A stretch of 64,000 bases of DNA from Dehalococcoidia bacterium (GCA_965116365.1 OZ220682.1:2008001-2072000); one strand, 5' to 3'; numbered from the stretch's first letter, positions 51,986-64,000 are shown. The notes: generated by a model from the letters alone, not told the origin. Made by a program: numbers and translations.

Positions 51986-52098
51986 GGTTCGCGTCGCTTT
52001 ACGAAAGGGCGATGACGCGTGTAATTGCCAGTCGGTATAGGTTCCGGCTGGTTTCGGAACGGTTTTTGGCGCGTTTAATTGAAGGGGTTTTACTCCCT

Positions 52099-52138
52099 TC
52101 ACCCTCACCCTAGCCCTCTCCCATCAAGGGAGAGGGGA
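52099..52138. repeat. Palindromic repeat family A
   Basis: tcaccctcaccctagccctctcccatcaagggagagggga. Confidence 0.85.
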
Positions 52139-52381
52139 TCGATGTTCGAAGCATCGCCGCGTCGTTTCGATCGCGTGCGGCAAGTACTTTTGGTCCAGCA
52201 CCGCCGACGTCGCCAGACCGTCGGCCCTCCGGGAAGCGTCTGAAAGAGGTGCTCCCGTCATCGCTCGATTCATTCCTCTCGCTGGTGCTGCAGCCTCCCC
52301 CGCCCGACGATGCGGGTAGACGTGTGCCGGATAAAAGACCGTTCGCCCGAACCTTGAACGGACAGATTCCCCCGCGCTACT

Positions 52382-52410
52382 CCCCTCTGGATTCCGGTTC
52401 TCCCCGGAAC
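52382..52410. repeat. Palindromic repeat family B (degenerate)
   Basis: cccctctggattccggttctccccggaac. Confidence 0.6.
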
Positions 52411-52429
52411 AACCTGGGTTTGGCACGTT

Positions 52430-52461
52430 CCCCTCTGGATCCCCGCGTGCGCGGGAATGGC
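52430..52461. repeat. Palindromic repeat family B (variant)
   Basis: cccctctggatccccgcgtgcgcgggaatggc. Confidence 0.65.
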
Positions 52462-52962
52462 ATCAGGGAGGGCGTCCGCCGTCTGGCTTGCTTTCGTTGG
52501 CGGAGCCGGCGTATGCCCCGCGTCCGAGCCCTGCAGCTACAACGGTCTTCGTTTACCGATTATTGGCGTACGTTGGACCCTGACATCAAAGGGGATTTGA
52601 CGGGCTCCGCCGGCGGGCGCCGTCAGCGCCCCGAGGTCTCCCGCCCGCAGGCCGGGTTGTTTGTAATTTTCGTCAACGGCGTAGAAAAGGAAAGGTGCAC
52701 GCTCTCCGTCTCGACGCGGCGATGTCTCTGGCGCCGCTCCGAGGGTTCGGCTCGGCGCTTGTTTGTTATATTACTACAGATGTAGCGGGAGTCAAGTGTC
52801 TGAACCGGGGATTGCGGGGATTTAGGGATTGGTGGGATTTTGGTGGTGGTGGGTATGAGCTTCCTACGGTGTGCCCCCTTTGTCCTTCGGACATTTCCCC
52901 CGCGAGCGGGGGAAACCCTGCCTTGTGGTCGCCCTGTTCGCCCTCGCCGGGGCCCTCTTAAT

Positions 52963-52981
52963 CTCCCCCTAGGAGGGGGAG
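52963..52981. repeat. Palindromic repeat family F
   Basis: ctccccctaggagggggag. Confidence 0.6.
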
Positions 52982-53078
52982 GGAAGGATGGAGGGGGAGA
53001 GGGGATATGCGCCACAGCCCTGTCTCGCCGGGAATACCCCGCTCGCGTCACTTCGTTTCGAAAGGGGCACACATTCCC

Positions 53079-53987
53079 CTACTTTGTGTTCAATTCGTGT
53101 TTTAGACAGGCTCGTAGGTCGCGATGTTCGAACTCGAAGCTGGCTTGTAGGAGTTTTTCGGGTATGACGAATTTGCTGTCGATGGCGAGTTCTTGGATGT
53201 AGTTACCGATGGCGAAGCGGGCGATGATTGCGGGCATCCATCCGAAGCAGGGCTTGTGCAGCGCGTCGGCGATGGCTTGAGATAGTTCGGAGTTTCTGAC
53301 GACGCCGGGTGAAACTACGTTGACCGGCCCGTTTAACGACTCGTTTTCGGCGACAAAGATCAGGGCCGAGATGGCGTCGTCGATGTGAATCCACGGCGTC
53401 CACTGCCTGCCGTTGCCTAGTCGTCCGCCGAGACCTAGCTTGAACGGCAGTATCATCACTGGAAGCGGCCCGTCATCGGCAGCAAACACCATGCCGAAAC
53501 GCGCGGTGGCTGTGCGAACGCCGAACTCCTCAGCACTCGCGGTCGCCGCTTCCCACGGAATGGCGATGTCGGCGAGGATGCCTTCGCCACGTTCGCTCTG
53601 TTCGGTCAGCTGTTCGTCGCCGCGATCGCCGTAGATGGCAACTCCCGAAGGGGTGATTAAGACGGTCGGAGGCGAGTCCATTCGGCGGCAGATCTCAACC
53701 AGCGTCTCGGTGGTGATGATACGGCTACTGGCGATTAGGTCCAGATATTCGCGTGTCCAGCGTTTCGCAACGGACGCGCCGGAGAGGTTGACTACGGCGT
53801 CGATGGGACCTAGATCGTCAATGTTGACGGAATCGGGATCGGTGGTGTCCCATGGGATCTGAGGAACGTCAGGTTCTGGATCGGGTTCTCGGCGCACGAG
53901 ATGGACCACCTCGTCGCCACGTTCGAGCAAGCGTGCGGTTAGTGATTTACCGATGAAACCGCTTGCTCCGGATATAAGAACCCTCAT
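53079..53987 (-). CDS. YfcH/TIGR01777-type NAD-dependent epimerase-like protein (with DUF1731-like C-terminus)
   Basis: MRVLISGASGFIGKSLTARLLERGDEVVHLVRR. The ATG at 53987 leaves a 7-nt gap to the upstream SDR stop. C-terminal segment P.KLL..GF.F....L..CL. Confidence 0.8.
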   Translation of the reverse strand: MRVLISGASGFIGKSLTARLLERGDEVVHLVRREPDPEPDVPQIPWDTTDPDSVNIDDLGPIDAVVNLSGASVAKRWTREYLDLIASSRIITTETLVEICRRMDSPPTVLITPSGVAIYGDRGDEQLTEQSERGEGILADIAIPWEAATASAEEFGVRTATARFGMVFAADDGPLPVMILPFKLGLGGRLGNGRQWTPWIHIDDAISALIFVAENESLNGPVNVVSPGVVRNSELSQAIADALHKPCFGWMPAIIARFAIGNYIQELAIDSKFVIPEKLLQASFEFEHRDLRACLKHELNTK

Positions 53988-53994
53988 GCTTAAA

Positions 53995-54795
53995 TCATAA
54001 AGCCGCGCCACCATCGACGGTGATCATGGAGCCGGTGACGCCGCTGGCTTCGTCGGATGCTGCGAATAGGAAGGCGTTGGCCAAGTCTTCGGGCATCATC
54101 AATCGTCCCATCGGGGTGTTAGAACGTCTGCCTTCGTAGTTTTCCGGGTTATCGATGCTCGTCGATGCGTCGTTTGGACTGTAGGCGTTGTTGCCTCTGA
54201 TGAATGGCGTGTCGACGTGTCCGGGCGAGATGATTACGGAGCGGATATTTTCCTTGGCGTAGCTTGCGGCAGCCGCTCGGTTCAGTCCGACCATGCCCAT
54301 CTTCTGCGCGGCGTATCCCGGTGATCCGCCACCGGGACGGATCGATGCAAGTGATCCTATGTTCAGGATTGCTCCACTGCCGGCTCGACGCATGGATGGC
54401 ACGACCGCTTTTATACCGAGAAAGGCTCCTGTCAAGCCGGTTTCCATGATGATGTGCCACATATCCAAGGATTGATCGTCGAAACTGACCCTGAAATTCG
54501 CCCCGGCATTGTTGCATAAGATGCTTACCGGTCCGAACGCGTCTTCAGTCGCGCTAACGCAATCCGTCCACCCTGCTTCATCGCGGACATCCAGTTCATA
54601 AGCGATTGCGCTGCCACCGTTCTCGGCAATGTCAGCACGAATCGTTTCAGCGGCATCCATTCGGAAGTCAGCGACACACACCGCCGCGCCGTGTTCTGCG
54701 AATAGTCGGCACTGTGCGCCGCCCATCGCTCCACCGCCGCCCGTCACGATGGCGACTTTGCCATCAAGTCTTTTTCCGAAGTTAGCCGTTGACAT
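53995..54795 (-). CDS. Short-chain dehydrogenase/reductase (SDR)
   Basis: The motifs VAIVTGGGGAMG, NNAG and YAAQK (YxxxK) plus a PG motif, forming the classical SDR set. Confidence 0.88.
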   Translation of the reverse strand: MSTANFGKRLDGKVAIVTGGGGAMGGAQCRLFAEHGAAVCVADFRMDAAETIRADIAENGGSAIAYELDVRDEAGWTDCVSATEDAFGPVSILCNNAGANFRVSFDDQSLDMWHIIMETGLTGAFLGIKAVVPSMRRAGSGAILNIGSLASIRPGGGSPGYAAQKMGMVGLNRAAAASYAKENIRSVIISPGHVDTPFIRGNNAYSPNDASTSIDNPENYEGRRSNTPMGRLMMPEDLANAFLFAASDEASGVTGSMITVDGGAAL

Positions 54796-54926
54796 TTACC
54801 ATGTTCCCGCAGATTGTTGGTAACGCCTGAAATGTTACATGGAAACCTAGACGAGTTCGCCATCGAGACCTTTGCAAAACTGTTTGGCAAGTCGATGGCT
54901 CGGTCCGTAGTTGTCCGCTGGTGCAT

Positions 54927-54958
54927 CCCTCTGGATTCCGGCTTTCGTCGGAATGACG
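54927..54958. repeat. Palindromic repeat family B
   Basis: ccctctggattccggctttcgtcggaatgacg. Confidence 0.8.
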
Positions 54959-55002
54959 TGAGCGTGCGACGGAATGACTGACTTTTCAATTGTCTTTTGA
55001 CG

Positions 55003-55809
55003 TTACGAACTAGGGGGAGTAATCAGCCCTAACAGTGCGCCTTGTGGATCGAAAATCCACGCGATGCGCCCTACTCCTGGCACGTCCCATGGCGGGTCCG
55101 GCAACTCGGCACCGTTCTGCACTGCTCGTTCAACTGCTGTATCCACATCATCGACGTTGAGGTAGACGACCCAAGTCGGACCACCGAGTCGCGCTAGTAA
55201 CTCTTCTGAAAGCCCGGCAAGAGCGCTGATGCCCATCACGGGTCCATCCTCGGTTCTGACTATTGAGTTGATCGATCCGTCCGGCATCTCCATAGGATCG
55301 GTCTTGACTCTCAGCAACGTACGGTAAAACGCGGCGGCGGTTTCAGGATCGGGCGTCATCAACTCGCACCACTGCATCGAACCATGTTCGTGCTTGATGG
55401 TGGGACCCGACTGAAACGCCTGCCAGATGTTCACTCTCCCACCGGTGGGATCCGCGATCTGTGCGCCAATCCCGTACTCTCCCACTTTCGATGGAGCCTC
55501 AACCACAGAACCGCCAAGATCTGGGACTCGCCTCGTGACATCCTCCATGTCGTCGACCAGAATTTGGATGCTCCACTGCGGCTTCGCACCGGACTCGATC
55601 TCCTCGTTGCTCTGCGAAGCAACCCCGGCTGAATACCCGGATGAGTTTTTCGCCCATGCGTAACGTCTTCCTCCTACGTCCTCTGGCGGCGCTTCGTCGT
55701 AGCCCCAACCGAACAGATTCGTGTAGAACGACATCGATGCCGCGATATCAGGCGAACTTAGGTCCACCCAAAACGGCGTTCCTTGAGTGAGATTGGTGTA
55801 TTGGGGCAT
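55003..55809 (-). CDS. Two-domain VOC (glyoxalase-fold) protein, paralogue 1 of 6
   Basis: MPQYTNLTQGTPFWVDLSSPDIAASMSFYTNLFGWGY, with a second half-domain around QWCELMT.DPE.AA.FY. The ATG at 55807-55809 was preferred over the GTG at 55824. Confidence 0.8.
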   Translation of the reverse strand: MPQYTNLTQGTPFWVDLSSPDIAASMSFYTNLFGWGYDEAPPEDVGGRRYAWAKNSSGYSAGVASQSNEEIESGAKPQWSIQILVDDMEDVTRRVPDLGGSVVEAPSKVGEYGIGAQIADPTGGRVNIWQAFQSGPTIKHEHGSMQWCELMTPDPETAAAFYRTLLRVKTDPMEMPDGSINSIVRTEDGPVMGISALAGLSEELLARLGGPTWVVYLNVDDVDTAVERAVQNGAELPDPPWDVPGVGRIAWIFDPQGALLGLITPPSS

Positions 55810-55820
55810 GATTAGTTCGA

Positions 55821-56627
55821 TCACTCCTCTCGCTGGTGCGGTTCGATGACGCAGAAATCGGCACCTTGGGGATCGCGGAGCACGATGAAACGTCCGACAT
55901 CGTTAACCGCGGGTTCGCTGGCCATCGCCTTGCCGCCGTTTGCGTGCACATAGTCAACTGCCCTGTCAAGATCGGTCACTTGAAAATAGACGAACCACAT
56001 CGATGGTACGCCATTCGCGATCATCTCATCCGGCCACTGAAACATACCCGCGACCGGGATGTTGTCCACGATCCACATCGTGTATTCGTTTAGATTGCCC
56101 TGCGGGGCAGTTACTGTCGCAACTCCGAGAACATCTTCGTAGAAGCGTACTGATTGCTTGAGATCGGTGCTAACGTGTTCGGACCAAGTCAATGCGCCCG
56201 GCTCTGCGCGGATTAGACTGCCTTGAAACTCCCCCGGTTGCCACAGTGTGGTCTGACAGCCAGTCGGGTCTTCGATTACAGCGACGCGCCCTGCGCGATC
56301 CACATCGGTAGCCTCGGCTAGAACCACATCGCCGCGTTGCCGGACGTGGCCTAGAGTCGCGTCGATGTCATCGACCGAGACGTAGACGTTCCAGTTCGGC
56401 TTCGAGGGAGCGCGTATCTGATCCGGACCCAGCTCGTAGATCGCCGCCGTAGCAACATCGTTCACCATCGCCATCGAATATGTGCCGATGCCCATTTCGC
56501 CCATCTGCTCGTCGATGTAGCTCCATCCGAAGAGTCCTGAGTAGAAATCTCTGGCCGCTGCGAGATCGTTCGTCGCTAGATCGACCCAACACGGCGTTCC
56601 GTGTTGATACTTGGCAAGTAGCGGCAA
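55821..56627 (-). CDS. Two-domain VOC protein, paralogue 2 of 6
   Basis: MPLLAKYQHGTPCWVDLATNDLAAARDFYSGLFGWSY. Confidence 0.8.
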   Translation of the reverse strand: MPLLAKYQHGTPCWVDLATNDLAAARDFYSGLFGWSYIDEQMGEMGIGTYSMAMVNDVATAAIYELGPDQIRAPSKPNWNVYVSVDDIDATLGHVRQRGDVVLAEATDVDRAGRVAVIEDPTGCQTTLWQPGEFQGSLIRAEPGALTWSEHVSTDLKQSVRFYEDVLGVATVTAPQGNLNEYTMWIVDNIPVAGMFQWPDEMIANGVPSMWFVYFQVTDLDRAVDYVHANGGKAMASEPAVNDVGRFIVLRDPQGADFCVIEPHQREE

Positions 56628-56645
56628 TGTTCGGGACGGTTGGTA

Positions 56646-57443
56646 TCAGACCGTTGGCAACTGCTGAATGCCAAAAACCGCACCTTGCGGATCTTGCATC
56701 ACCGCGAATGTGCCCACCATTGGCAACACTTCTGGGCCGAAATGTACGGTTGCACCTAACGACGTCGCGGTCTCGACGGTCGCCGTTGCATCATCTACTC
56801 TGAAGTAGACCTCCCAGTGCGGCGGGACGCCCATTTCGACCAGATGTTCTGGCGATGGCATCACACCAGCGACAGGCACGCCCTCGACCATGAGCATGTG
56901 GTACGGTTCGCCCTCTGGTGTTGGCATCGTTTCTATATCGAGATCGATGCCGAGTAGTTCGGTGTAAAACTTGCCTGCGCCCTCTTGATCTGAGGTCAGC
57001 AACTCGGCCCAGGTCAACGCGCCGTGCTCATCTCGAATTTCGCAACCGATATTGGCCTTCGCCTGCCAGAACTGAATCATCGCGCCGGTGGGGTCTTGCG
57101 CCATTATCATCCGTCCGGATTCGTCCTCATCGAACTCATCAACGATGATCGTTCCACCAAGATCAGAGACTTTTGAAGCGGTTGCCTCAATGTCGTCAAC
57201 CGCTAGGTAAACCTTCCAGTGCGGTGGGACTCCAGCCTCAGCTTCCTGAGCGACCTGTGTGAATATCGCTCCGGCGTCTGATCCGTTGAGCTTGGCTATT
57301 GAGTAGACTTGGCCTTCGCCCATAGGGATGTCTTGGTAATCCCATCCAAAGATCGCCGAATAGAACGCCTTGGCTCCGTCCTGATCCGTCGTAGATAAAT
57401 CGGTCCAACAGGGTGTTCCCTGTTTGTAGCTTTCGATCTTCAA
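56646..57443 (-). CDS. Two-domain VOC protein, paralogue 3 of 6
   Basis: MKIESYKQGTPCWTDLSTTDQDGAKAFYSAIFGWDY... and VPPHWEVYFRVDD. Confidence 0.8.
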   Translation of the reverse strand: MKIESYKQGTPCWTDLSTTDQDGAKAFYSAIFGWDYQDIPMGEGQVYSIAKLNGSDAGAIFTQVAQEAEAGVPPHWKVYLAVDDIEATASKVSDLGGTIIVDEFDEDESGRMIMAQDPTGAMIQFWQAKANIGCEIRDEHGALTWAELLTSDQEGAGKFYTELLGIDLDIETMPTPEGEPYHMLMVEGVPVAGVMPSPEHLVEMGVPPHWEVYFRVDDATATVETATSLGATVHFGPEVLPMVGTFAVMQDPQGAVFGIQQLPTV

Positions 57444-57467
57444 GTCGATATTCCTTTCGCTGGTCGG

Positions 57468-58268
57468 TTATCCAGTTGGCGGCGATTGGACACCGAACTG
57501 TGCGCCTTGGGGATCTTGCATGTAGCCGATCGTTCCCATGGGGCCCAAATCCGCCGGTCCCATGTAAACCTGCCCGCCGCTCGCCGTCGTCGCGTCGCAG
57601 ACTGCCTGCGCGTCGTCGACTCTGAAGTAGACCTCCCAGTGCGAGGGAACTCCCATATCGACTAGTTGTTGCGGCATGTTCATGATGCTTGCCACAGGTT
57701 GACCGTTGACGACTAACTGATGAACTGTTCCACCGTCAGGCGACGACATCGCGTCTTTGGCGACTTCGATGTCTAGCAACTCCGAGTAGAAAGTTGCTGT
57801 CGCATCTTTGTCGGTAGTCAACACCAGAGTCCACGTCAACGCACCATGCTCATCACGGACCTCCGCGCCGATGTGTTGATTCGGCTGCCAGAACATGACT
57901 ACAGCACCGACTGAGTCCTGGGCGACGATCATTCGTCCGGCATCGAACACGTCCAGAGGAGCCATGAGCACGTTACCGCCCAACTCTGGTACTCGTTCGG
58001 CAACGGCGTCCACATCATCTACCGTGATGTAGACATTCCAGTGTGGCGGTACGCCCTGCTGAGCTTCTTCTGGCTGCTGAGGAGCGATGGCGCCTGCGGG
58101 AGAGCCACCGATTTGGGCCATGGAATAGATCATTCCGTTACCCGCATCGTTGTCTTCGTATTCCCATCCGAAAAGGGTCGAATAAAACCCTTTAGCAGCT
58201 TCCTGATCTGAGGTCGATAGATCGACCCATGACGGGGTCCCCTGAGCGTATTTTTCAACTTTGGGCAT
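57468..58268 (-). CDS. Two-domain VOC protein, paralogue 4 of 6
   Basis: MPKVEKYAQGTPSWVDLSTSDQEAAKGFYSTLFGWEY. By eye it is about 50% identical to paralogue 3. Confidence 0.8.
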   Translation of the reverse strand: MPKVEKYAQGTPSWVDLSTSDQEAAKGFYSTLFGWEYEDNDAGNGMIYSMAQIGGSPAGAIAPQQPEEAQQGVPPHWNVYITVDDVDAVAERVPELGGNVLMAPLDVFDAGRMIVAQDSVGAVVMFWQPNQHIGAEVRDEHGALTWTLVLTTDKDATATFYSELLDIEVAKDAMSSPDGGTVHQLVVNGQPVASIMNMPQQLVDMGVPSHWEVYFRVDDAQAVCDATTASGGQVYMGPADLGPMGTIGYMQDPQGAQFGVQSPPTG

Positions 58269-58353
58269 GTGTTGTCGGCCTTTCTCGCCTATTCGTGTTG
58301 TCGCATTGGACGCGTCAAAGTGACCTTCGACACGTTACGTTGCCAATTTGTGA

Positions 58354-59211
58354 TTACTCCATAGGCCGCAACGACATGATGCTGAACGTTGCGCCGTGAG
58401 GATCGTTGATCACCGAGAACTTACCGGGCGGTATCTCGGTAGGCGGCACACATACGGCGCCGCCAAGCTCAGCGGCCTTCGCCGCCGACGCGTCGCAATC
58501 CTCAACTCGGAAATATGTCATGAAGTGCGACGGCATGTCGCCCCAACTCGCGTCCATCTCCATCATCCCGCCACGGTCCGGTTCTAGGCCGGGCACCTTT
58601 AGCCAGTGATACTCGTATTCGATATCGCCTTCAGCATCCTCATAGTCAGTCGGCGGCCGCATCAAATCGACTCGTTGATACCGGCTGCCGAACACATGTC
58701 CGACGAAATCGTTGAGCCCCGCGACGTCACGTGTGTAGTACTCGACCCAACATACGCCGCCAACTTCCCAAAACGCTTCGTTCTCTACGCCCTTTTCGCC
58801 GCTCCAAACAACGAACGGAGCACCTTCAGGTGTTTTCAAGAGTGATTTACTACCGCCACTCGCAGGGTCGTCGCAAGCCGTCATGATGACTGAACCGCCC
58901 TTCTCGACGGCTCGTTCCATCGCTGTATCGGCGTCATCAACCCAGAACGCGTTGACCCAGTTGAACGGTTCCGGTGGTAACGGCATTCCCTCGCTGTATG
59001 TGTAGACGCCGCCGACTACCTTGTCGCCGAGCTGCGCCTGCGAGAACACGCCTTTTGGACTCGACATGAGATCGTGCCACTCCCATCCCAGCAACTTCGC
59101 GTAGAACTTCTTGGTCGCATCCACATCCCTCGACGCCAAATCCCACCAAACTGGCGTGCCCTGCACATGTCCAGACGAGTTGCTCAACTGCTTCTCCTGA
59201 CTTGCTTGCAA
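58354..59211 (-). CDS. Two-domain VOC protein, paralogue 5 of 6 (most divergent)
   Basis: GHVQGTPVWWDLASRDVDATKKFYAKLLGWEW, and a second domain with SHFMTYFRVEDCD. Confidence 0.75.
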   Translation of the reverse strand: MQASQEKQLSNSSGHVQGTPVWWDLASRDVDATKKFYAKLLGWEWHDLMSSPKGVFSQAQLGDKVVGGVYTYSEGMPLPPEPFNWVNAFWVDDADTAMERAVEKGGSVIMTACDDPASGGSKSLLKTPEGAPFVVWSGEKGVENEAFWEVGGVCWVEYYTRDVAGLNDFVGHVFGSRYQRVDLMRPPTDYEDAEGDIEYEYHWLKVPGLEPDRGGMMEMDASWGDMPSHFMTYFRVEDCDASAAKAAELGGAVCVPPTEIPPGKFSVINDPHGATFSIMSLRPME

Positions 59212-59315
59212 TCGAGACGAGAATCTTTCTCAACCGATTAGAGATAGTAACTAGCGAAGATTATCTAACGTTGACGTGCGATACACCAACTCAACATAGG
59301 AAAAGCCTCTGCTAC

Positions 59316-60092
59316 TCAACCGGCAGGCTGCCACAGGTTGAAGCGAACGCCTTGGGGATCCACGAGGGACGCGAGCGACCCCGGCGGGACATCCATCACC
59401 GGAAATACTACTTTTGCTCCAAGCGATTCGGCTCTTGCAACTGACGCGTGAATATCTTCGACCATGAAGTACGTGGCCCATCGCGCCGTAGATTCGCCCT
59501 CTGTCAACTCGAAAAACGCGCATGGCATCTGCTCACCATCGATGGAAAGCATCGTCACTGTGTAGTCTGAGCCAGCAGCATCACTCATCGGAATCGTTAT
59601 CGTGTCGAAATCTACGCCGAAAGTCTCAGAGTAAAACCGCTTTGCGGCTTCGAGATCTCCGGTGTGATACTCGACCCAACACACCGAACCCGGTTCTCCG
59701 AATATGTCGGCACCGTAACCTTTCAGGCTTTGCCATATGCCGAACACAGGGCCCTCTGGCGTGGCGACGGTTGCGGTTACGCCCCAACCGTCGGCATTGT
59801 GAGGCTCGGTAAGCACGCTACCGCCGTTCGCCTCGATACGTCTCGCCGTCGCTTCGGCATCCTCGACATAGACGCTGTTGACCCACACTCCCATAATCCC
59901 GTGAATTTCATCGTTCTCGGACATACCGGCGATGTTGGTGTCGTTTCTAATCGCCATGTGGTAGGTATTGCCACCCGACATCGGGACATCCGCCCACTCC
60001 CAGCCGAAGAGACCGGAATAGAAATCCTTCGCTCCTTGCGGATCAGGCGTGGACAGATTGAACCAGATCGGGTTGCCTTGCAGTTGCGGCAT
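59316..60092 (-). CDS. Two-domain VOC protein, paralogue 6 of 6
   Basis: MPQLQGNPIWFNLSTPDPQGAKDFYSGLFGWEW. The ATG at 60090-60092 removes the 26-nt overlap with the next gene that the ORF-track start (60134) would create. The start remains uncertain. Confidence 0.75.
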   Translation of the reverse strand: MPQLQGNPIWFNLSTPDPQGAKDFYSGLFGWEWADVPMSGGNTYHMAIRNDTNIAGMSENDEIHGIMGVWVNSVYVEDAEATARRIEANGGSVLTEPHNADGWGVTATVATPEGPVFGIWQSLKGYGADIFGEPGSVCWVEYHTGDLEAAKRFYSETFGVDFDTITIPMSDAAGSDYTVTMLSIDGEQMPCAFFELTEGESTARWATYFMVEDIHASVARAESLGAKVVFPVMDVPPGSLASLVDPQGVRFNLWQPAG

Positions 60093-60108
60093 TCTTGGTT
60101 GAGTTATC

Positions 60109-60780
60109 TCAATGATCCTTTTTGCCTTTTTCATCCAACGGATAGTGCATTAGTTTGTTCAACGTTTCATCATCGAGCCCAGTTTTGTTGGTCTTCACCA
60201 TTTCGTCCCACAACGAACGTAGGTATTTGGCATCTAATTCGCGAGTCACATCGACGATGTTTTCCGTAAGTTCTTTAATGTCGCCGATCTCCAGAATGTA
60301 TCCGTATCGCTCAAGTTCGCCGTCGTACACCGACATGAATGTCGGTATCGGGTGCATATCAGTCCACACAAAACCGGTCAATTTCGAAGACATCAAAACA
60401 GGGCCGTTCCGAAAATCCGATTCGATGTACCGGTTAGGTGAAATAGCACCGTGGATAATGCGATTTCGTCGTTTATTCAGTTCATTGAGACAGGACTGCA
60501 AGTTCACTTTTCCAGTCAACCGCTCAATGGCGAGCGAAACGGGTTGGTGTGCTTCTGATTTATGAAGAAAAGATCGCACATCAAGAATCGGCATCGGATG
60601 AAATGCACCGCCTTCATATTTGGCTTTGTCTAAAGCCCATAGTCTCCATTCCAACTCGGACCACGCCGCATGAAACGAACCTACAGCTCGAATTAAGGCT
60701 TTGCGTTGCATCCCGAAAATCAACTGATTGACACTCCAGGGAAGACGTGATCGAAGGCGTCTGATCCGCGCTTGATCCAT
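60109..60780 (-). CDS. Hypothetical protein with an RNxxxH (HEPN-type) motif, in an AT-rich insert
   Basis: The ATG at 60778-60780 gives MDQARIRRLR.... The motif LNELNKRRNRIIHGA contains R-N-R-I-I-H, which fits the HEPN Rx4-6H consensus. Sampled lines give 42-45% GC, against 55% in the flanking VOC gene. Confidence 0.5.
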   Translation of the reverse strand: MDQARIRRLRSRLPWSVNQLIFGMQRKALIRAVGSFHAAWSELEWRLWALDKAKYEGGAFHPMPILDVRSFLHKSEAHQPVSLAIERLTGKVNLQSCLNELNKRRNRIIHGAISPNRYIESDFRNGPVLMSSKLTGFVWTDMHPIPTFMSVYDGELERYGYILEIGDIKELTENIVDVTRELDAKYLRSLWDEMVKTNKTGLDDETLNKLMHYPLDEKGKKDH

Positions 60781-60923
60781 GTTGAGTTGCTCCTGTTTGA
60801 TTACGAAAAACGTTAGATAGCGAATCCGCACAAAGCGACCGTTGCTTTCGCGGCGGTCTTATCCCGATCACCAAAGATCAGGGGAAGGTAGTTCGATAAT
60901 AGCACATATATTTCATTACGGTT

Positions 60924-61445
60924 TCACTTATTAATCCCTCTCATCATCCCGCGCAGGTACTCGATCTGCCCCAGATGCTCAGCCTCTTCGCAAAGCAGGT
61001 GCCCTAGCACCCACGCGTAGGTGATCGGATCGTAGCGGGGATGCGTTAGCTCGATGGTTAGATCCGATTCTTGCATCTCGTTTTCGAAGTATTCGGTTGT
61101 GCCTTCACGGACGGCTTGGTAGTAGTCCATGACCTTCGGTACATCGAACGCGGGCATGGCGCGGATGTCCTCGGCGGTCTGACCGAATCCGTTGGTCGGC
61201 TCTTCGACGCCGCAGCGCTCGGCCCATCTGTCGCGGTCCCAGATCGATTCTGAATTGCGAAGCCGGACGTTGATCCAGTTGTCCTCAACCCGCGCCATGT
61301 GCCACACCATCCAATCGATGGTGTTCGACTCCAATGCTGGCCGCCAGTGGAGTTCGTCTTCGGAAAGGCCGTCTAGCGCCCTCTTCAGTTTCTCAAAAGC
61401 CTCGTTGAGACCAGAATCGATGGCTGCTAAGAACGGTTTCATCAT
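60924..61445 (-). CDS. DinB-family (four-helix bundle, DinB_2-like) protein, paralogue 1 of 3
   Basis: LDGLSEDELHWRP...NTIDWMVWHMARVED and LGHLLCEEAEHLGQIEYLRGMMRG. Confidence 0.8.
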   Translation of the reverse strand: MMKPFLAAIDSGLNEAFEKLKRALDGLSEDELHWRPALESNTIDWMVWHMARVEDNWINVRLRNSESIWDRDRWAERCGVEEPTNGFGQTAEDIRAMPAFDVPKVMDYYQAVREGTTEYFENEMQESDLTIELTHPRYDPITYAWVLGHLLCEEAEHLGQIEYLRGMMRGINK

Positions 61446-61960
61446 TTGTTAAGTCCTCTCATCATGCCTCGGAGGTACTCGATCTGTCCGAGGTGTTCTG
61501 CCTCTTCGCATAGCAGACGACCCAAGATTTGAGCGCCGGTCCAACCTCGGAAGTTCGTATGTTCGATGACTCTCGACAGGTCATCTTCACTCATAGCGTT
61601 CGCAAAGTAGCCTGACGTCTCTTTACGGATGGATCGATAGTAGCCCATGACTTTCGGAACATCGATCCCACCCATCGCCCGAATCTCATCCATCGTCATC
61701 CCGGCACCAGCGCCGGTGTATGCGATGCCTAGACACTTGCCCCAGCCGTCGCGTTCCCAGATCGGAACTCGTTTTTGAAGTACAACATTGACCAAGTTGT
61801 CTTCTACCCGCGCCATGTGCCAAACCATCCAATCGATAGAGTTCGACTCCAGCGTCGGTTGCCAACTTAGCTCATCCTCACTCAAACCATCCAAAGCACG
61901 ATTCAGCTTCTCGAAGCACTCGTTGACGCCGCTGTCGATGGCTTGCAGAAAAGGTCGCAT
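61442..61960 (-). CDS. DinB-family protein, paralogue 2 of 3
   Basis: By eye about 65% identical to paralogue 1. Its stop overlaps the start of paralogue 1 (ATGA at 61442-61445). Confidence 0.8.
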   Translation of the reverse strand: MRPFLQAIDSGVNECFEKLNRALDGLSEDELSWQPTLESNSIDWMVWHMARVEDNLVNVVLQKRVPIWERDGWGKCLGIAYTGAGAGMTMDEIRAMGGIDVPKVMGYYRSIRKETSGYFANAMSEDDLSRVIEHTNFRGWTGAQILGRLLCEEAEHLGQIEYLRGMMRGLNK

Positions 61961-61973
61961 GGCCAGTCCCCAA

Positions 61974-62492
61974 CTACCCGTCCAACCCGCGCATCATTCC
62001 GCGCAGGTACGCGATCTGCCCTAGGTGCTGAGCCTCTTCGACGAGGATGTGTCCTAAGACCCAAGCGCCGCTTACCGCGATCTTTCTGCGCGGATGGTAA
62101 AACTCCTTGTCCAAATCCTCGACGGGCATCTGATCAAGATGCGCGAGCGTGACCTTCCGAGCTTCTCGGTAATAGTCCATCATCTCGTTGATGTCCGTCT
62201 TGGGCATCGCCCGCATTTTCTCGGCTGTATCTTCCCGTCCGTAGTCGTCGGGGTCCATTCCGAAGCGCTTGTACCAGCCATCCTTGACCCAGATGTCGTC
62301 ATCTTGGCGGAGGACGAGATTCACCCATCGGTCTTCCACTCGTCCCATATGCCAGACGATCCACTCGATGAAGTTGGCATGGAGAGCCGGTTGATACCGC
62401 AGTTCATCCTCGGTTAGGCCGTCCAGCGCTTTTTCGAGCCCTTCCATGTACTCGATCAAACCGCTTCGAACCGCATCCTTGAAATCTGGCAT
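61974..62492 (-). CDS. DinB-family protein, paralogue 3 of 3
   Basis: LDGLTEDELRYQP...NFIEWIVWHMGRVED and LGHILVEEAQHLGQIAYLRGMMRG. Confidence 0.8.
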   Translation of the reverse strand: MPDFKDAVRSGLIEYMEGLEKALDGLTEDELRYQPALHANFIEWIVWHMGRVEDRWVNLVLRQDDDIWVKDGWYKRFGMDPDDYGREDTAEKMRAMPKTDINEMMDYYREARKVTLAHLDQMPVEDLDKEFYHPRRKIAVSGAWVLGHILVEEAQHLGQIAYLRGMMRGLDG

Positions 62493-62516
62493 GGTTTATC
62501 TCCTATCCACCCAATT

Positions 62517-62547
62517 CCTCTGGATTCCGGCTTTCGCCGGAATGACG
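62517..62547. repeat. Palindromic repeat family B
   Basis: cctctggattccggctttcgccggaatgacg. Confidence 0.8.
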
Positions 62548-62567
62548 GGATTGCGGTGGCCTTGGCC

Positions 62568-63542
62568 TCAAGCGGCAGACTGCTTCGTAACCGCCTCAAT
62601 CATCGCTTGGATGTAGCCATTGGCGAATGCTCTGCCGCGGTGACCCCACGGCGTGTCCTCGAATGTCTGCGGCACGTGGTCGTCGATGAAGAAGGAGTCG
62701 TAGCCCACTTCCTGGTAGATCTGCATCGCCTTGTACATGTCAACGTGGCCCGTGTTGATGAACTCCTCACGGAATTTTGGCACTGGTGCCGACACGTTGC
62801 GGAAATGCACGTATAGGATCTTCTTTCGCTCGCCGAAGTAGCGGATCATGTCGTAGATGCCGCCATTGGCCGCGTCCTCCATCTCTGAGAACGTCCCTTG
62901 GCAGAATTCGATGCCGTTGTAAGGGGAATCGACGATCTCGATCAGCCGCTTGTAAGAGTCGAACGACCTGAACAGCTGAGGGATACCGCCAAGCTTTTCG
63001 ACGGGCGGATCGCATGGATGGATGCCGCATCGCACACCAGCCTCCTCAGCGACCGGCGTGATGATACGTATCCACTCCTCAAGTCGCTCCCACATCTCCT
63101 CTTCGGTGTGCTCACGCCCGTGAGTATTGGGCATCTTCAACGCCTGTTCGTAGTCGAACGCCGTCGCCAGCGCACCACCTCGAATGAGTTCCGGTTTAGT
63201 TCGCCAGACATGCGACGGCATCCAGTTGTAGCCGAAGATCGGAATGCCAGCGTCACCGATGTTGCGCACTGTTTGGATCATGTTCTCGATCTGCTGCTCC
63301 CGGTTCGGGCCGCCGAGCATGATGTCGAGGTAGAAGTGTGTCGGCACGTTCTCCAGCGCCATCAGCTTCAAGCCTTCGCTCTCGACCTGCAACCTCAGCT
63401 TCACGAGGTCGTTGACCGCCCACTTTCCACCGGCATCAGGCAGTTGCGGCGTGTTGAGCAACACGTCCTTTACACCGTATTGGGCGGCGAACCGCAGATA
63501 CTCACGGCCGGGTGTATTGAACTGTCCAAATCCTGCTCGCAT
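62568..63542 (-). CDS. Mannonate dehydratase (UxuA)-like / xylose-isomerase-fold TIM-barrel protein
   Basis: LALENVP....LD.MLGGP.R..QIEN...T.RN.G.AGIP..GYNWMP..VWRT is UxuA-like, as are HPCDPP and HFRNV. The assignment comes from motif memory only. Confidence 0.6.
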   Translation of the reverse strand: MRAGFGQFNTPGREYLRFAAQYGVKDVLLNTPQLPDAGGKWAVNDLVKLRLQVESEGLKLMALENVPTHFYLDIMLGGPNREQQIENMIQTVRNIGDAGIPIFGYNWMPSHVWRTKPELIRGGALATAFDYEQALKMPNTHGREHTEEEMWERLEEWIRIITPVAEEAGVRCGIHPCDPPVEKLGGIPQLFRSFDSYKRLIEIVDSPYNGIEFCQGTFSEMEDAANGGIYDMIRYFGERKKILYVHFRNVSAPVPKFREEFINTGHVDMYKAMQIYQEVGYDSFFIDDHVPQTFEDTPWGHRGRAFANGYIQAMIEAVTKQSAA

Positions 63543-63648
63543 TTTCGTGCTGCCTTTCGAAACTATCCGGTTTCTAGTGAATTACAGGTTATCTATCAGT
63601 TGTGCGACTTACATTGTTGTCAAGTGATGCGGACGATCATGTTCGTCG

Positions 63649-64000
63649 TTAGGTTCGTCGGGCCCACCTGAAATTCCACCAAGTGATAATCGGGCTGATA
63701 ACCACTGTAGGAGCAATCCAAACAATCCATGCCGGTTCGACGTAATCGAAATTGACGACCATCACCGCCGTGATCGTAGCTATAGTGCCGGCGAGCATGT
63801 TTGTCAGGTGCCGTTGTATTCGCTGGCGCGCCGAAGCAGCCCAACCGCGGTGATACAGCCAATCCAACACGCTGAGAGCGATCGCAATCGTCCCAAACAC
63901 CGCGAGAGCGATCCATATCGTATTGCCTGATGTTCCAACCACGACACCGTACACCCACATTGTCACCCCCGTGACCGCCATGATGCTGACCGCTGCCCAG
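63649..64000 (-). CDS. Hypothetical membrane protein (5' end may lie beyond the window)
   Basis: The hydrophobic product has about 3 TM helices. The reading frame stays open from the ATG at 63979-63981 up to base 64000, so the true start may be outside the window. Confidence 0.45.
   Translation of the reverse strand, partial: WAAVSIMAVTGVTMWVYGVVVGTSGNTIWIALAVFGTIAIALSVLDWLYHRGWAASARQRIQRHLTNMLAGTIATITAVMVVNFDYVEPAWIVWIAPTVVISPIITWWNFRWARRT

Follow-up and report, generated by a model that had tools for sequence, protein, structure and literature searches.

Here we describe an array of six tandem genes, named p1 to p6 in order of transcription, in a 64,000-nucleotide stretch of a Dehalococcoidia genome (GCA_965116365.1 OZ220682.1:2008001-2072000), which we refer to at its full length as the window. 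The six genes encode two-domain proteins of the vicinal oxygen chelate (VOC) superfamily and belong to its Rv0577/KbpA/AbxF double-VOC subfamily. The array is ancient, has been inherited vertically at a fixed chromosomal slot under strong purifying selection, and represents a genus-specific and strictly tandem expansion. Its proteins have kept none of the metal ligands of classical VOC enzymes, and the residues at the equivalent positions differ from one paralogue to the next. We hypothesize, with a probability of roughly 0.45, that the array encodes diversified, metal-free proteins acting on aromatic compounds and forms a locus for the processing or detoxification of such compounds.

Organization of the array

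Positions 55003-60134 contain, on the minus strand, six intact open reading frames (ORFs) arranged head to tail, each 258-285 codons long and with no other gene between them (Table 1). The initial annotation, which was made from the DNA sequence alone, had described six consecutive, co-oriented genes of this length with a common two-domain architecture, and this description is borne out by the ORFs, by Pfam matches, and by a structural model of p2. The first and the last gene each allow two starts. A longer reading of p1 from the ATG at 60134 overlaps the upstream gene, while an alternative GTG start of p6 at 55824 creates a 4-nt overlap with the stop codon of p5. We prefer ATG 60092 for p1 and ATG 55809 for p6 because these agree with the consensus of orthologues and with the common 'MP' start, which p1, p3, p5, and p6 have. 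With the preferred starts, the gaps from p1 to p6 measure 104, 85, 24, 18, and 11 nt, in agreement with the range of 11-104 nt and the lack of unrelated genes reported initially.

Pairwise identity among the six proteins ranges from 23 to 52%, the maximum being that of p3 and p4, which had been put at about 50% by eye. Within each protein, the two halves are mutually homologous (hhalign probability of 100%), and the C-terminal domain of p2 carries an insertion of ~14 residues. None of the six proteins has a hydrophobic N-terminus, and we therefore take them to be cytoplasmic. GC content is uniform along the array (0.55-0.575) and equal to that of the surroundings.

When the 2.45-Mb genome was searched with a profile of the array proteins (profile positions 2-268 being covered), these six genes were the only two-domain matches. 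Two further VOC-like matches in the genome (G000:C1:1896080-1896394 and G000:C1:460361-460735, E ~1e-7 and 1e-6) are single-domain and may represent a housekeeping glyoxalase or epimerase. At the Rfam gathering threshold, the window contains one tRNA, with nothing in or near the array. A scan of positions 52800-63800 for promoters and terminators returned no more sites than the shuffled expectation (4 vs. 5.7; 10 vs. 10.1) and is uninformative as to operon structure.

Family assignment and predicted fold

All six proteins match Pfam family PF00903 (Glyoxalase/Bleomycin resistance/Dioxygenase) with 44.7-78.1 bits against a cut-off of 20.6, five of the copies in two stretches and p2 in one. The AlphaFold2 model of p2 (pLDDT 85.8, pTM 0.85) shows four beta-alpha-beta-beta-beta modules. 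A profile of the six proteins matched Rv0577 of Mycobacterium tuberculosis (3OXH) at E=1e-83, with profile positions 5-266 aligned to residues 21-278 across both domains, and 3OXH was also the first structure returned by Foldseek for the p2 model (TM 0.78/0.88, 32% identity). Membership in the Rv0577/CFP32-type family, which the initial annotation had proposed, is thus confirmed by both comparisons.

AbxF ranked second by both routes. Its chains 8EO9, 8STB, and 9JT3 followed in the profile search at E ~3e-34, over the N-terminal domain only, and the same structures came next after 3OXH in Foldseek (TM 0.65/0.85). Two-domain extradiol dioxygenases and HPPD-type enzymes stood much lower in the Foldseek ranking; two-domain dioxygenases and maize glyoxalase I were returned at E ~1e-11. 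Profile matches to other proteins included the single-domain 2R6U (E=4e-11, N-terminal domain) as well as classical glyoxalases, methylmalonyl-CoA epimerases, and TnmS-type proteins (E=1e-8 to 1e-3).

The signature of the subfamily is present, namely Trp in place of the first metal-binding His in both domains, FGW, and DPxG..W, and the W, FY, and GW columns are invariant. The consensus motifs proposed at the outset for the two domains were roughly right, though not universal. For p1 the sequence reads GNP..W.NL, p2 departs with LLGW and DFVG, p3 has WTLV without the Glu, and a literal HW occurs solely in p3 and p4.

The similarity to Rv0577 (also CFP32 or TB27.3) is collinear and full-length over the same two-domain, four-module architecture, and Rv0577 shares the replacement of the metal ligands, with Trp at the position of the first His in both domains and non-ligand residues elsewhere. 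Rv0577 is usually treated as one gene that forms a pair with an ArsR-type regulator. In contrast, the present genes form six diverged tandem copies in a chloroflexotal host, and no regulator was seen in the flanks of the array. Members of the Rv0577/KbpA family have variously been called glyoxalase, kinase inhibitor, dye-binding protein, and TLR2 agonist, and the function of the family is unsettled.

The name of kinase inhibitor deserves separate consideration, as the entry 3OXH is titled 'kinase inhibitor homolog' and the best NCBIfam match for all six proteins is the KbpA model, NF053614. KbpA of Streptomyces coelicolor, the AfsK-binding protein, belongs to the same subfamily as Rv0577. It binds AfsK in the unphosphorylated state and prevents the kinase from phosphorylating itself (PMC6988585), and by analogy the array could encode six regulators that inhibit a Ser/Thr protein kinase. 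The scores of 113-151 bits, however, are at most 60% of the 250-bit equivalog cut-off, and the single-contig genome lacks any match to the Hanks-type kinase family Pkinase (PF00069), for which control genomes do give matches. Six diverged inhibitors would make little sense without a kinase, and we reject this reading, largely refuted by these data, as scarcely credible.

Metal-ligand positions and pocket residues

Each domain family was aligned to Escherichia coli GloA by hhalign, the strand register was extended by three residues, and residues were tallied per orthologue group. The GloA ligands H5, E56, H74, and E122 are not kept in any of the twelve half-proteins, which answers the question, raised with the initial annotation, of whether the metal-binding His and Glu residues persist in either half. 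At the H5 equivalent, each of the six groups has Trp in 95-100% of its sequences, in the N-terminal and the C-terminal domain alike, and so does Rv0577. In the N-terminal domain, the equivalents of E56, H74, and E122 are S/Y/A/F, V/N/K/S, and G/V/M/Q/T/N, respectively; in the C-terminal domain, they are F/M/S, A/M/E/F/I, and S/G/C. A His/Glu set is formed in neither domain.

Other residues near these positions are conserved. Two residues past the Trp, and facing the same way on the strand, lies a carboxylate, which is Asp in the N-terminal domain (Asp or Asn in p1) and Glu in the C-terminal domain. The exception is the C-terminal domain of p3, in which a fixed Leu replaces the carboxylate in 100% of orthologues. 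A further invariant Trp precedes the H74 equivalent by one position in both domains (Phe in the C-terminal domain of p2), and another follows the E122 equivalent by two positions in the N-terminal domain.

This pattern bears directly on whether the proteins could be classical metal-dependent VOC enzymes, that is, a glyoxalase I acting on methylglyoxal, an extradiol dioxygenase, or an epimerase. Such a role would be in keeping with the Pfam glyoxalase matches, with the Foldseek similarity to two-domain dioxygenases and maize glyoxalase I, and with the wide annotation of Rv0577 as a putative glyoxalase (PMC12982171; PMC9817126). Yet no copy retains a ligand position in either of its domains, the glyoxalase I model TIGR00068 scores at most 28.4 bits against a cut-off of 120, and the structural similarity to dioxygenases is much weaker than that to Rv0577 (TM 0.5-0.6, 9-16% identity). 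A metal-dependent role is accordingly very improbable, and glyoxalase I in particular was rejected. The residue pattern instead speaks for binding or catalysis without a metal.

Within an orthologue group, the six ligand-equivalent sites show a fixation of 0.75-0.92; between groups, they hold three to six residue types. Columns were scored by mean fixation, and 561 of 20,000 random sets of six columns reached the same combined score. Of the 252 alignment columns, 50 combine fixation within groups with at least four residue types over the six. A strict screen, in which each group had to be at least 85% fixed and four or more residue types had to occur, gave two columns. As the sites are fixed within orthologue groups and differ between them, the specificity of the putative pockets appears to have diversified, and the alignments support the pattern expected of paralogues with a common scaffold and diverged pocket acceptance.

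Phylogeny, synteny, and selection

Two trees were built, one by a quick tree search on 139 sequences and a careful one of 61 sequences with ultrafast bootstrap and SH-aLRT support. In both, each position of the array forms its own clade across the genus. Support in the quick and the careful tree was 99 and 100/99 for p1 (21 members), 100 and 100/99 for p2 (23 members), 99 and 100/100 for p3 (22 members), 99 and 100/100 for the p4 core, 100 and 100/100 for p5 (13 members), and 99 and 100/99 for p6 (17 members). These clades agree with the initial view that the copies are old. At a higher level, p3 and p4 are sister paralogues (99/97), p1 and p2 form a clade (100/98), and p3-p6 group together (99/97).

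The deep backbone is weakly supported; in the unconstrained tree, p1+p2 has long branches and does not group as the sister of p3-p6. Grouping all 124 copies of the genus in one clade was not rejected by an approximately unbiased (AU) test (delta lnL 10.9, p=0.40). The data fit duplication in place from one ancestor, with two old lineages as a less likely case; descent from six unrelated acquisitions, the alternative to in-situ duplication considered at the outset, is unsupported given the sister pairs, the p3-p6 clade, and the AU result.

The two-lineage case would make the array a mosaic of p1/p2 and p3-p6, acquired separately and later placed side by side. The long branches of p1+p2 in both trees could be read this way, as could the placement of Rv0577 and of sequences from other phyla between the two groups, a placement with weak backbone support. 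Against this, no relative from outside the genus groups with p1/p2, the AU test allows a single genus clade, composition is uniform, the order of p1-p6 is fixed in the genus, and the tree tool flagged long-branch artefacts. We consider a mosaic origin doubtful.

Among the loci that we fetched, the gene order in the genus is lactonase, acnA (aconitase), a gene-free tract, epimerase, short-chain dehydrogenase (SDR), p6 to p1, two to four genes of the mycothiol-S-transferase/DinB (MST/DinB) type, and UxuA. Median dN/dS values against orthologues are 0.12 for p1, 0.07 for p2, 0.07 for p3, 0.10 for p4, 0.12 for p5, and 0.12 for p6, with a maximum of 0.20. Low dN/dS together with intact frames identifies the six as maintained genes. 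A reading of some copies as decaying pseudogenes with disrupted folds is ruled out by the same evidence, and even p2 folds confidently in its model.

Membership in the array varies across the genus. Some early-branching members have a single gene of the p3/p4 type, p5 is absent from several members, and some genomes have an extra copy of p3 or a seventh group that is missing from the genome of the window. This seventh orthologue group forms a clade of three sequences (support of 100) and sits at the p5 position (L045 8636-9460, L050 8851-9678, and L055 10469-11281). Broken members also occur in relatives: a gene of the p6 type that is interrupted by a TAA stop (L052 6226-7074, genome G020), a C-terminal-domain remnant with two TAG stops (L046 8321-8647, genome G014), and an array copy with an internal deletion (L038 5831-6451, genome G005). 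These broken and remnant members indicate that gene loss is ongoing in the slot, and the variable membership, extra copies, and stop-bearing fragments across the genus show that the family turns over by gene birth and death.

Host and distribution of the array

The host genome is a single contig of 2.45 Mb from a SAR202-type member of the Dehalococcoidia (Chloroflexota). Its close relatives are metagenome-assembled genomes (MAGs) labelled Dehalococcoidia, Chloroflexi, or SAR202 cluster; several bear names (the SB0664/SB0665 bins and Plut_88894) that we take to denote sponge and coral MAGs. Each of the other 24 genomes in the genus has between three and nine matches, nearly all in a single tandem block, while 16 genomes from other families of the order hold zero to three, which are scattered. 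In an even draw of 301 Dehalococcoidia, a two-domain match was found in 18, and at least three copies occurred in this genus only. These counts supply the survey of array size in related genomes that had been suggested for the array.

Outside this class, one to seven copies occur in 81 of 301 Actinomycetota. Genomes with several copies are for the most part large, and the copies lie far apart rather than in tandem. Single-copy relatives were found in Acidobacteriota, Krumholzibacteriota, Planctomycetota, Gammaproteobacteria, Gemmatimonadota, and Solirubrobacterales. Contrary to the initial assumption, the family is therefore not specifically actinobacterial, given its SAR202 host and the single-copy relatives in several other phyla.

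One genome of the same genus (G016), that of a symbiont of the sponge Aplysina aerophoba, is SAR202 cluster bacterium bin127 (MPNN01000001.1), which Slaby et al. 2017 (PMC5649159) list as a sponge MAG of the Chloroflexi SAR202 clade.

Neighbouring genes

The flanks of the array encode an SDR, an epimerase, MST/DinB proteins, UxuA, an aconitase, and a lactonase (coordinates of those bordering the array are in Table 1). The three MST/DinB paralogues are the only genes of the PF04978/MST family in the genome, and in the same-genus loci fetched genes of this type likewise adjoin the VOC array. No polyketide synthase genes flank the array. The composition of the neighbourhood suggests that MST/DinB, SDR, and epimerase form, together with the array, a small locus for the processing of xenobiotics or natural products.

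Table 1. Coordinates in the window of the VOC genes and of the genes bordering them.
Feature	Position	Strand	Remarks
p1	59316..60092 (probable; ORF 59316-60134)	-	First in transcription; probable ATG 60092; 258 aa; two-domain
p2	58354..59211	-	285 aa; most divergent copy
p3	57468..58268	-	266 aa; sister paralogue of p4
p4	56646..57443	-	265 aa; TTG start; copy nearest the family consensus (best profile match)
p5	55821..56627	-	268 aa; TTG start
p6	55003..55809 (probable; ORF 55003-55824)	-	Last gene; probable ATG 55809; 268 aa
Three tandem DinB/mycothiol-S-transferase-like (MST) paralogues	60924..62492	-	172-173 aa; Pfam PF04978, PF12867; just upstream of the array
Short-chain dehydrogenase (SDR)	53995-54795	-	Pfam; directly downstream of the array
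NAD-dependent epimerase with DUF1731	53079-54014	-	Pfam; downstream; pairing with the SDR conserved across the genus
ORF without Pfam match	60109-60831	-	240 aa; between the VOC and DinB arrays

Two further features of the flanks were noted. The 240-aa ORF upstream of p1, the end of which overlaps the longer p1 reading, coincides with the sole dip in GC content, a patch of 0.475 against ~0.56. A homologue is in place in 3 of 27 related loci compared (75%, 59%, and 39% identity), and the ORF looks like a lineage-variable insert. On the other side, a tract of about 1.1 kb at positions 51986-53078, downstream of the aconitase gene, holds only overlapping ORFs rich in R, P, and G on both strands, with no convincing gene and no Rfam match at the gathering threshold.

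Candidate function

We propose that each protein has two Trp-lined, putatively metal-free pockets for small molecules that are planar or hydrophobic and probably aromatic. The ligand-equivalent sites, which we assume to face these pockets, differ between paralogues, such that the six copies could cover different compounds. Planar aromatic ligands are favoured because AbxF acts on a polycyclic aromatic polyketide and because Rv0577 reportedly binds neutral red and, weakly, deoxyadenosine. The mechanism that we prefer, by analogy with AbxF, is cofactor-free acid/base chemistry (e.g. isomerisation, cyclisation, or ring opening), with simple binding as a close alternative. In combination with the SDR and with the thiol-transferase-like MST/DinB proteins encoded next to it, the array would then constitute a locus that processes or detoxifies aromatic natural products or dissolved organic matter met in a host.

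AbxF is described in the titles of its PDB entries (8EO9, 8EPY, 8STB, and 9JT3) as the enzyme responsible for the chiral spiroketal in an anthrabenzoxocinone antibiotic, and it shows that catalysis on a polycyclic aromatic substrate is within reach of the subfamily. Its N-terminal domain is clearly homologous to that of the array proteins (E=2.4e-34) and the overall fold is similar; its C-terminal half, in contrast, barely matches (-0.4 bits). Unlike AbxF, which acts in a polyketide antibiotic pathway, the array does not lie within an aromatic polyketide gene cluster. With an enzyme among their relatives, the array proteins are no less likely to be catalysts than to be pure binders.

Alternatively, the proteins could be non-catalytic buffers that, in the manner of bleomycin-resistance and TnmS-type VOC proteins, sequester toxic planar compounds stoichiometrically and so protect a symbiont from the antibiotics of its host or neighbours. 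The sequestration of electrophiles or antibiotics that the initial annotation had raised is speculative. The loss of metal ligands and the invariant Trp residues at pocket-equivalent sites of both domains would suit such binders, several diverged copies would fit several ligands, and there are links in sequence to resistance proteins, namely Pfam matches of p1, p4, and p5 to Ble-like_N at 27.5-32.8 bits (cut-off 24.5), together with weak profile matches to the TnmS-type structures 5UMP, 5UMQ, and 5W27 (E=8e-6 to 3e-5). That similarity to true sequestration proteins is nonetheless weak (E ~1e-5), and proteins of the bleomycin-resistance/TnmS type are homodimers of a single VOC domain of ~120-140 aa, unlike the two-domain proteins of 258-285 aa described here. 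Moreover, the nearest characterised relative after Rv0577 is the enzyme AbxF, six stoichiometric binders would be costly in a genome of 2.45 Mb, and the pocket-equivalent carboxylates and enzyme neighbours would also fit catalysis. We regard sequestration as a possible but somewhat unlikely explanation, and the conserved carboxylates together with the enzyme neighbours lead us to favour catalysis slightly over pure sequestration.

Several points weigh against the proposal that the array processes or detoxifies aromatic compounds. The roles are read from sequence and predicted structure, and pocket geometry follows from the strand register and the GloA alignment rather than from coordinates, with the alignment of the E56 equivalent being uncertain. 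Support for diversification at pocket sites is modest (p ~0.03, for six sites in related sequences). AbxF is close to the N-terminal domain only. Single-copy relatives outside the genus do not have MST/DinB and SDR neighbours, so that the adjacency of these genes to the array is confined to the genus and may be coincidental synteny. Finally, the link to sponges comes via the same-genus genome bin127, not via the window's own genome.

Comparison with other SAR202 gene families

Expansions of paralogues in SAR202 have been described for flavin monooxygenases, ring-hydroxylating dioxygenases, and enolases, and are thought to widen the range of organic compounds that the lineage can handle (PMC6946804, PMC5395668). 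The present array is similar in that it follows this habit of the lineage of maintaining old, diversified enzyme families, and differs from the other expansions in being strictly tandem and confined to one genus. The terms glyoxalase, bleomycin, and DinB are not mentioned in PMC6946804, PMC5649159, or PMC6306507, nor does 'vicinal' occur in PMC6946804, and a literature search returned no paper joining sponge, SAR202, and glyoxalase.

It has been proposed that the abundance of SAR202 in sponges is shaped by aromatic natural products of the host, which the symbionts may degrade (Bayer et al. 2018, PMC6306507). The array provides a candidate locus for this idea, and by analogy it is plausible that it forms part of the handling of aromatic host metabolites by sponge SAR202. 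A more far-reaching and quite speculative extension, to which we assign little probability, is that the VOC array, together with the adjacent MST/DinB genes, is a symbiosis trait, with metal-free, Trp-lined pockets that are each tuned to a different aromatic natural product of the host (e.g. a brominated one) and with convergent expansion in unrelated symbionts.

Significance

The protein family is already known, and expansion of paralogues is a known hallmark of SAR202; what is added here is a genus-specific tandem expansion of the Rv0577 type, not a new type of system. Its practical importance is modest until a ligand or an activity is found. The Rv0577/KbpA family is widespread and has no settled biochemical role; one member, AbxF, is a polyketide cyclase. 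In this context, six diversified paralogues, each with ~12-21 orthologues and free of a metal site, offer a ready panel for ligand or substrate screening and for the definition of specificity residues. If the array does prove to be a symbiosis trait, it would be one of the factors deciding which bacteria are able to inhabit chemically defended hosts, and the orphan Rv0577 family would gain its first natural substrates.

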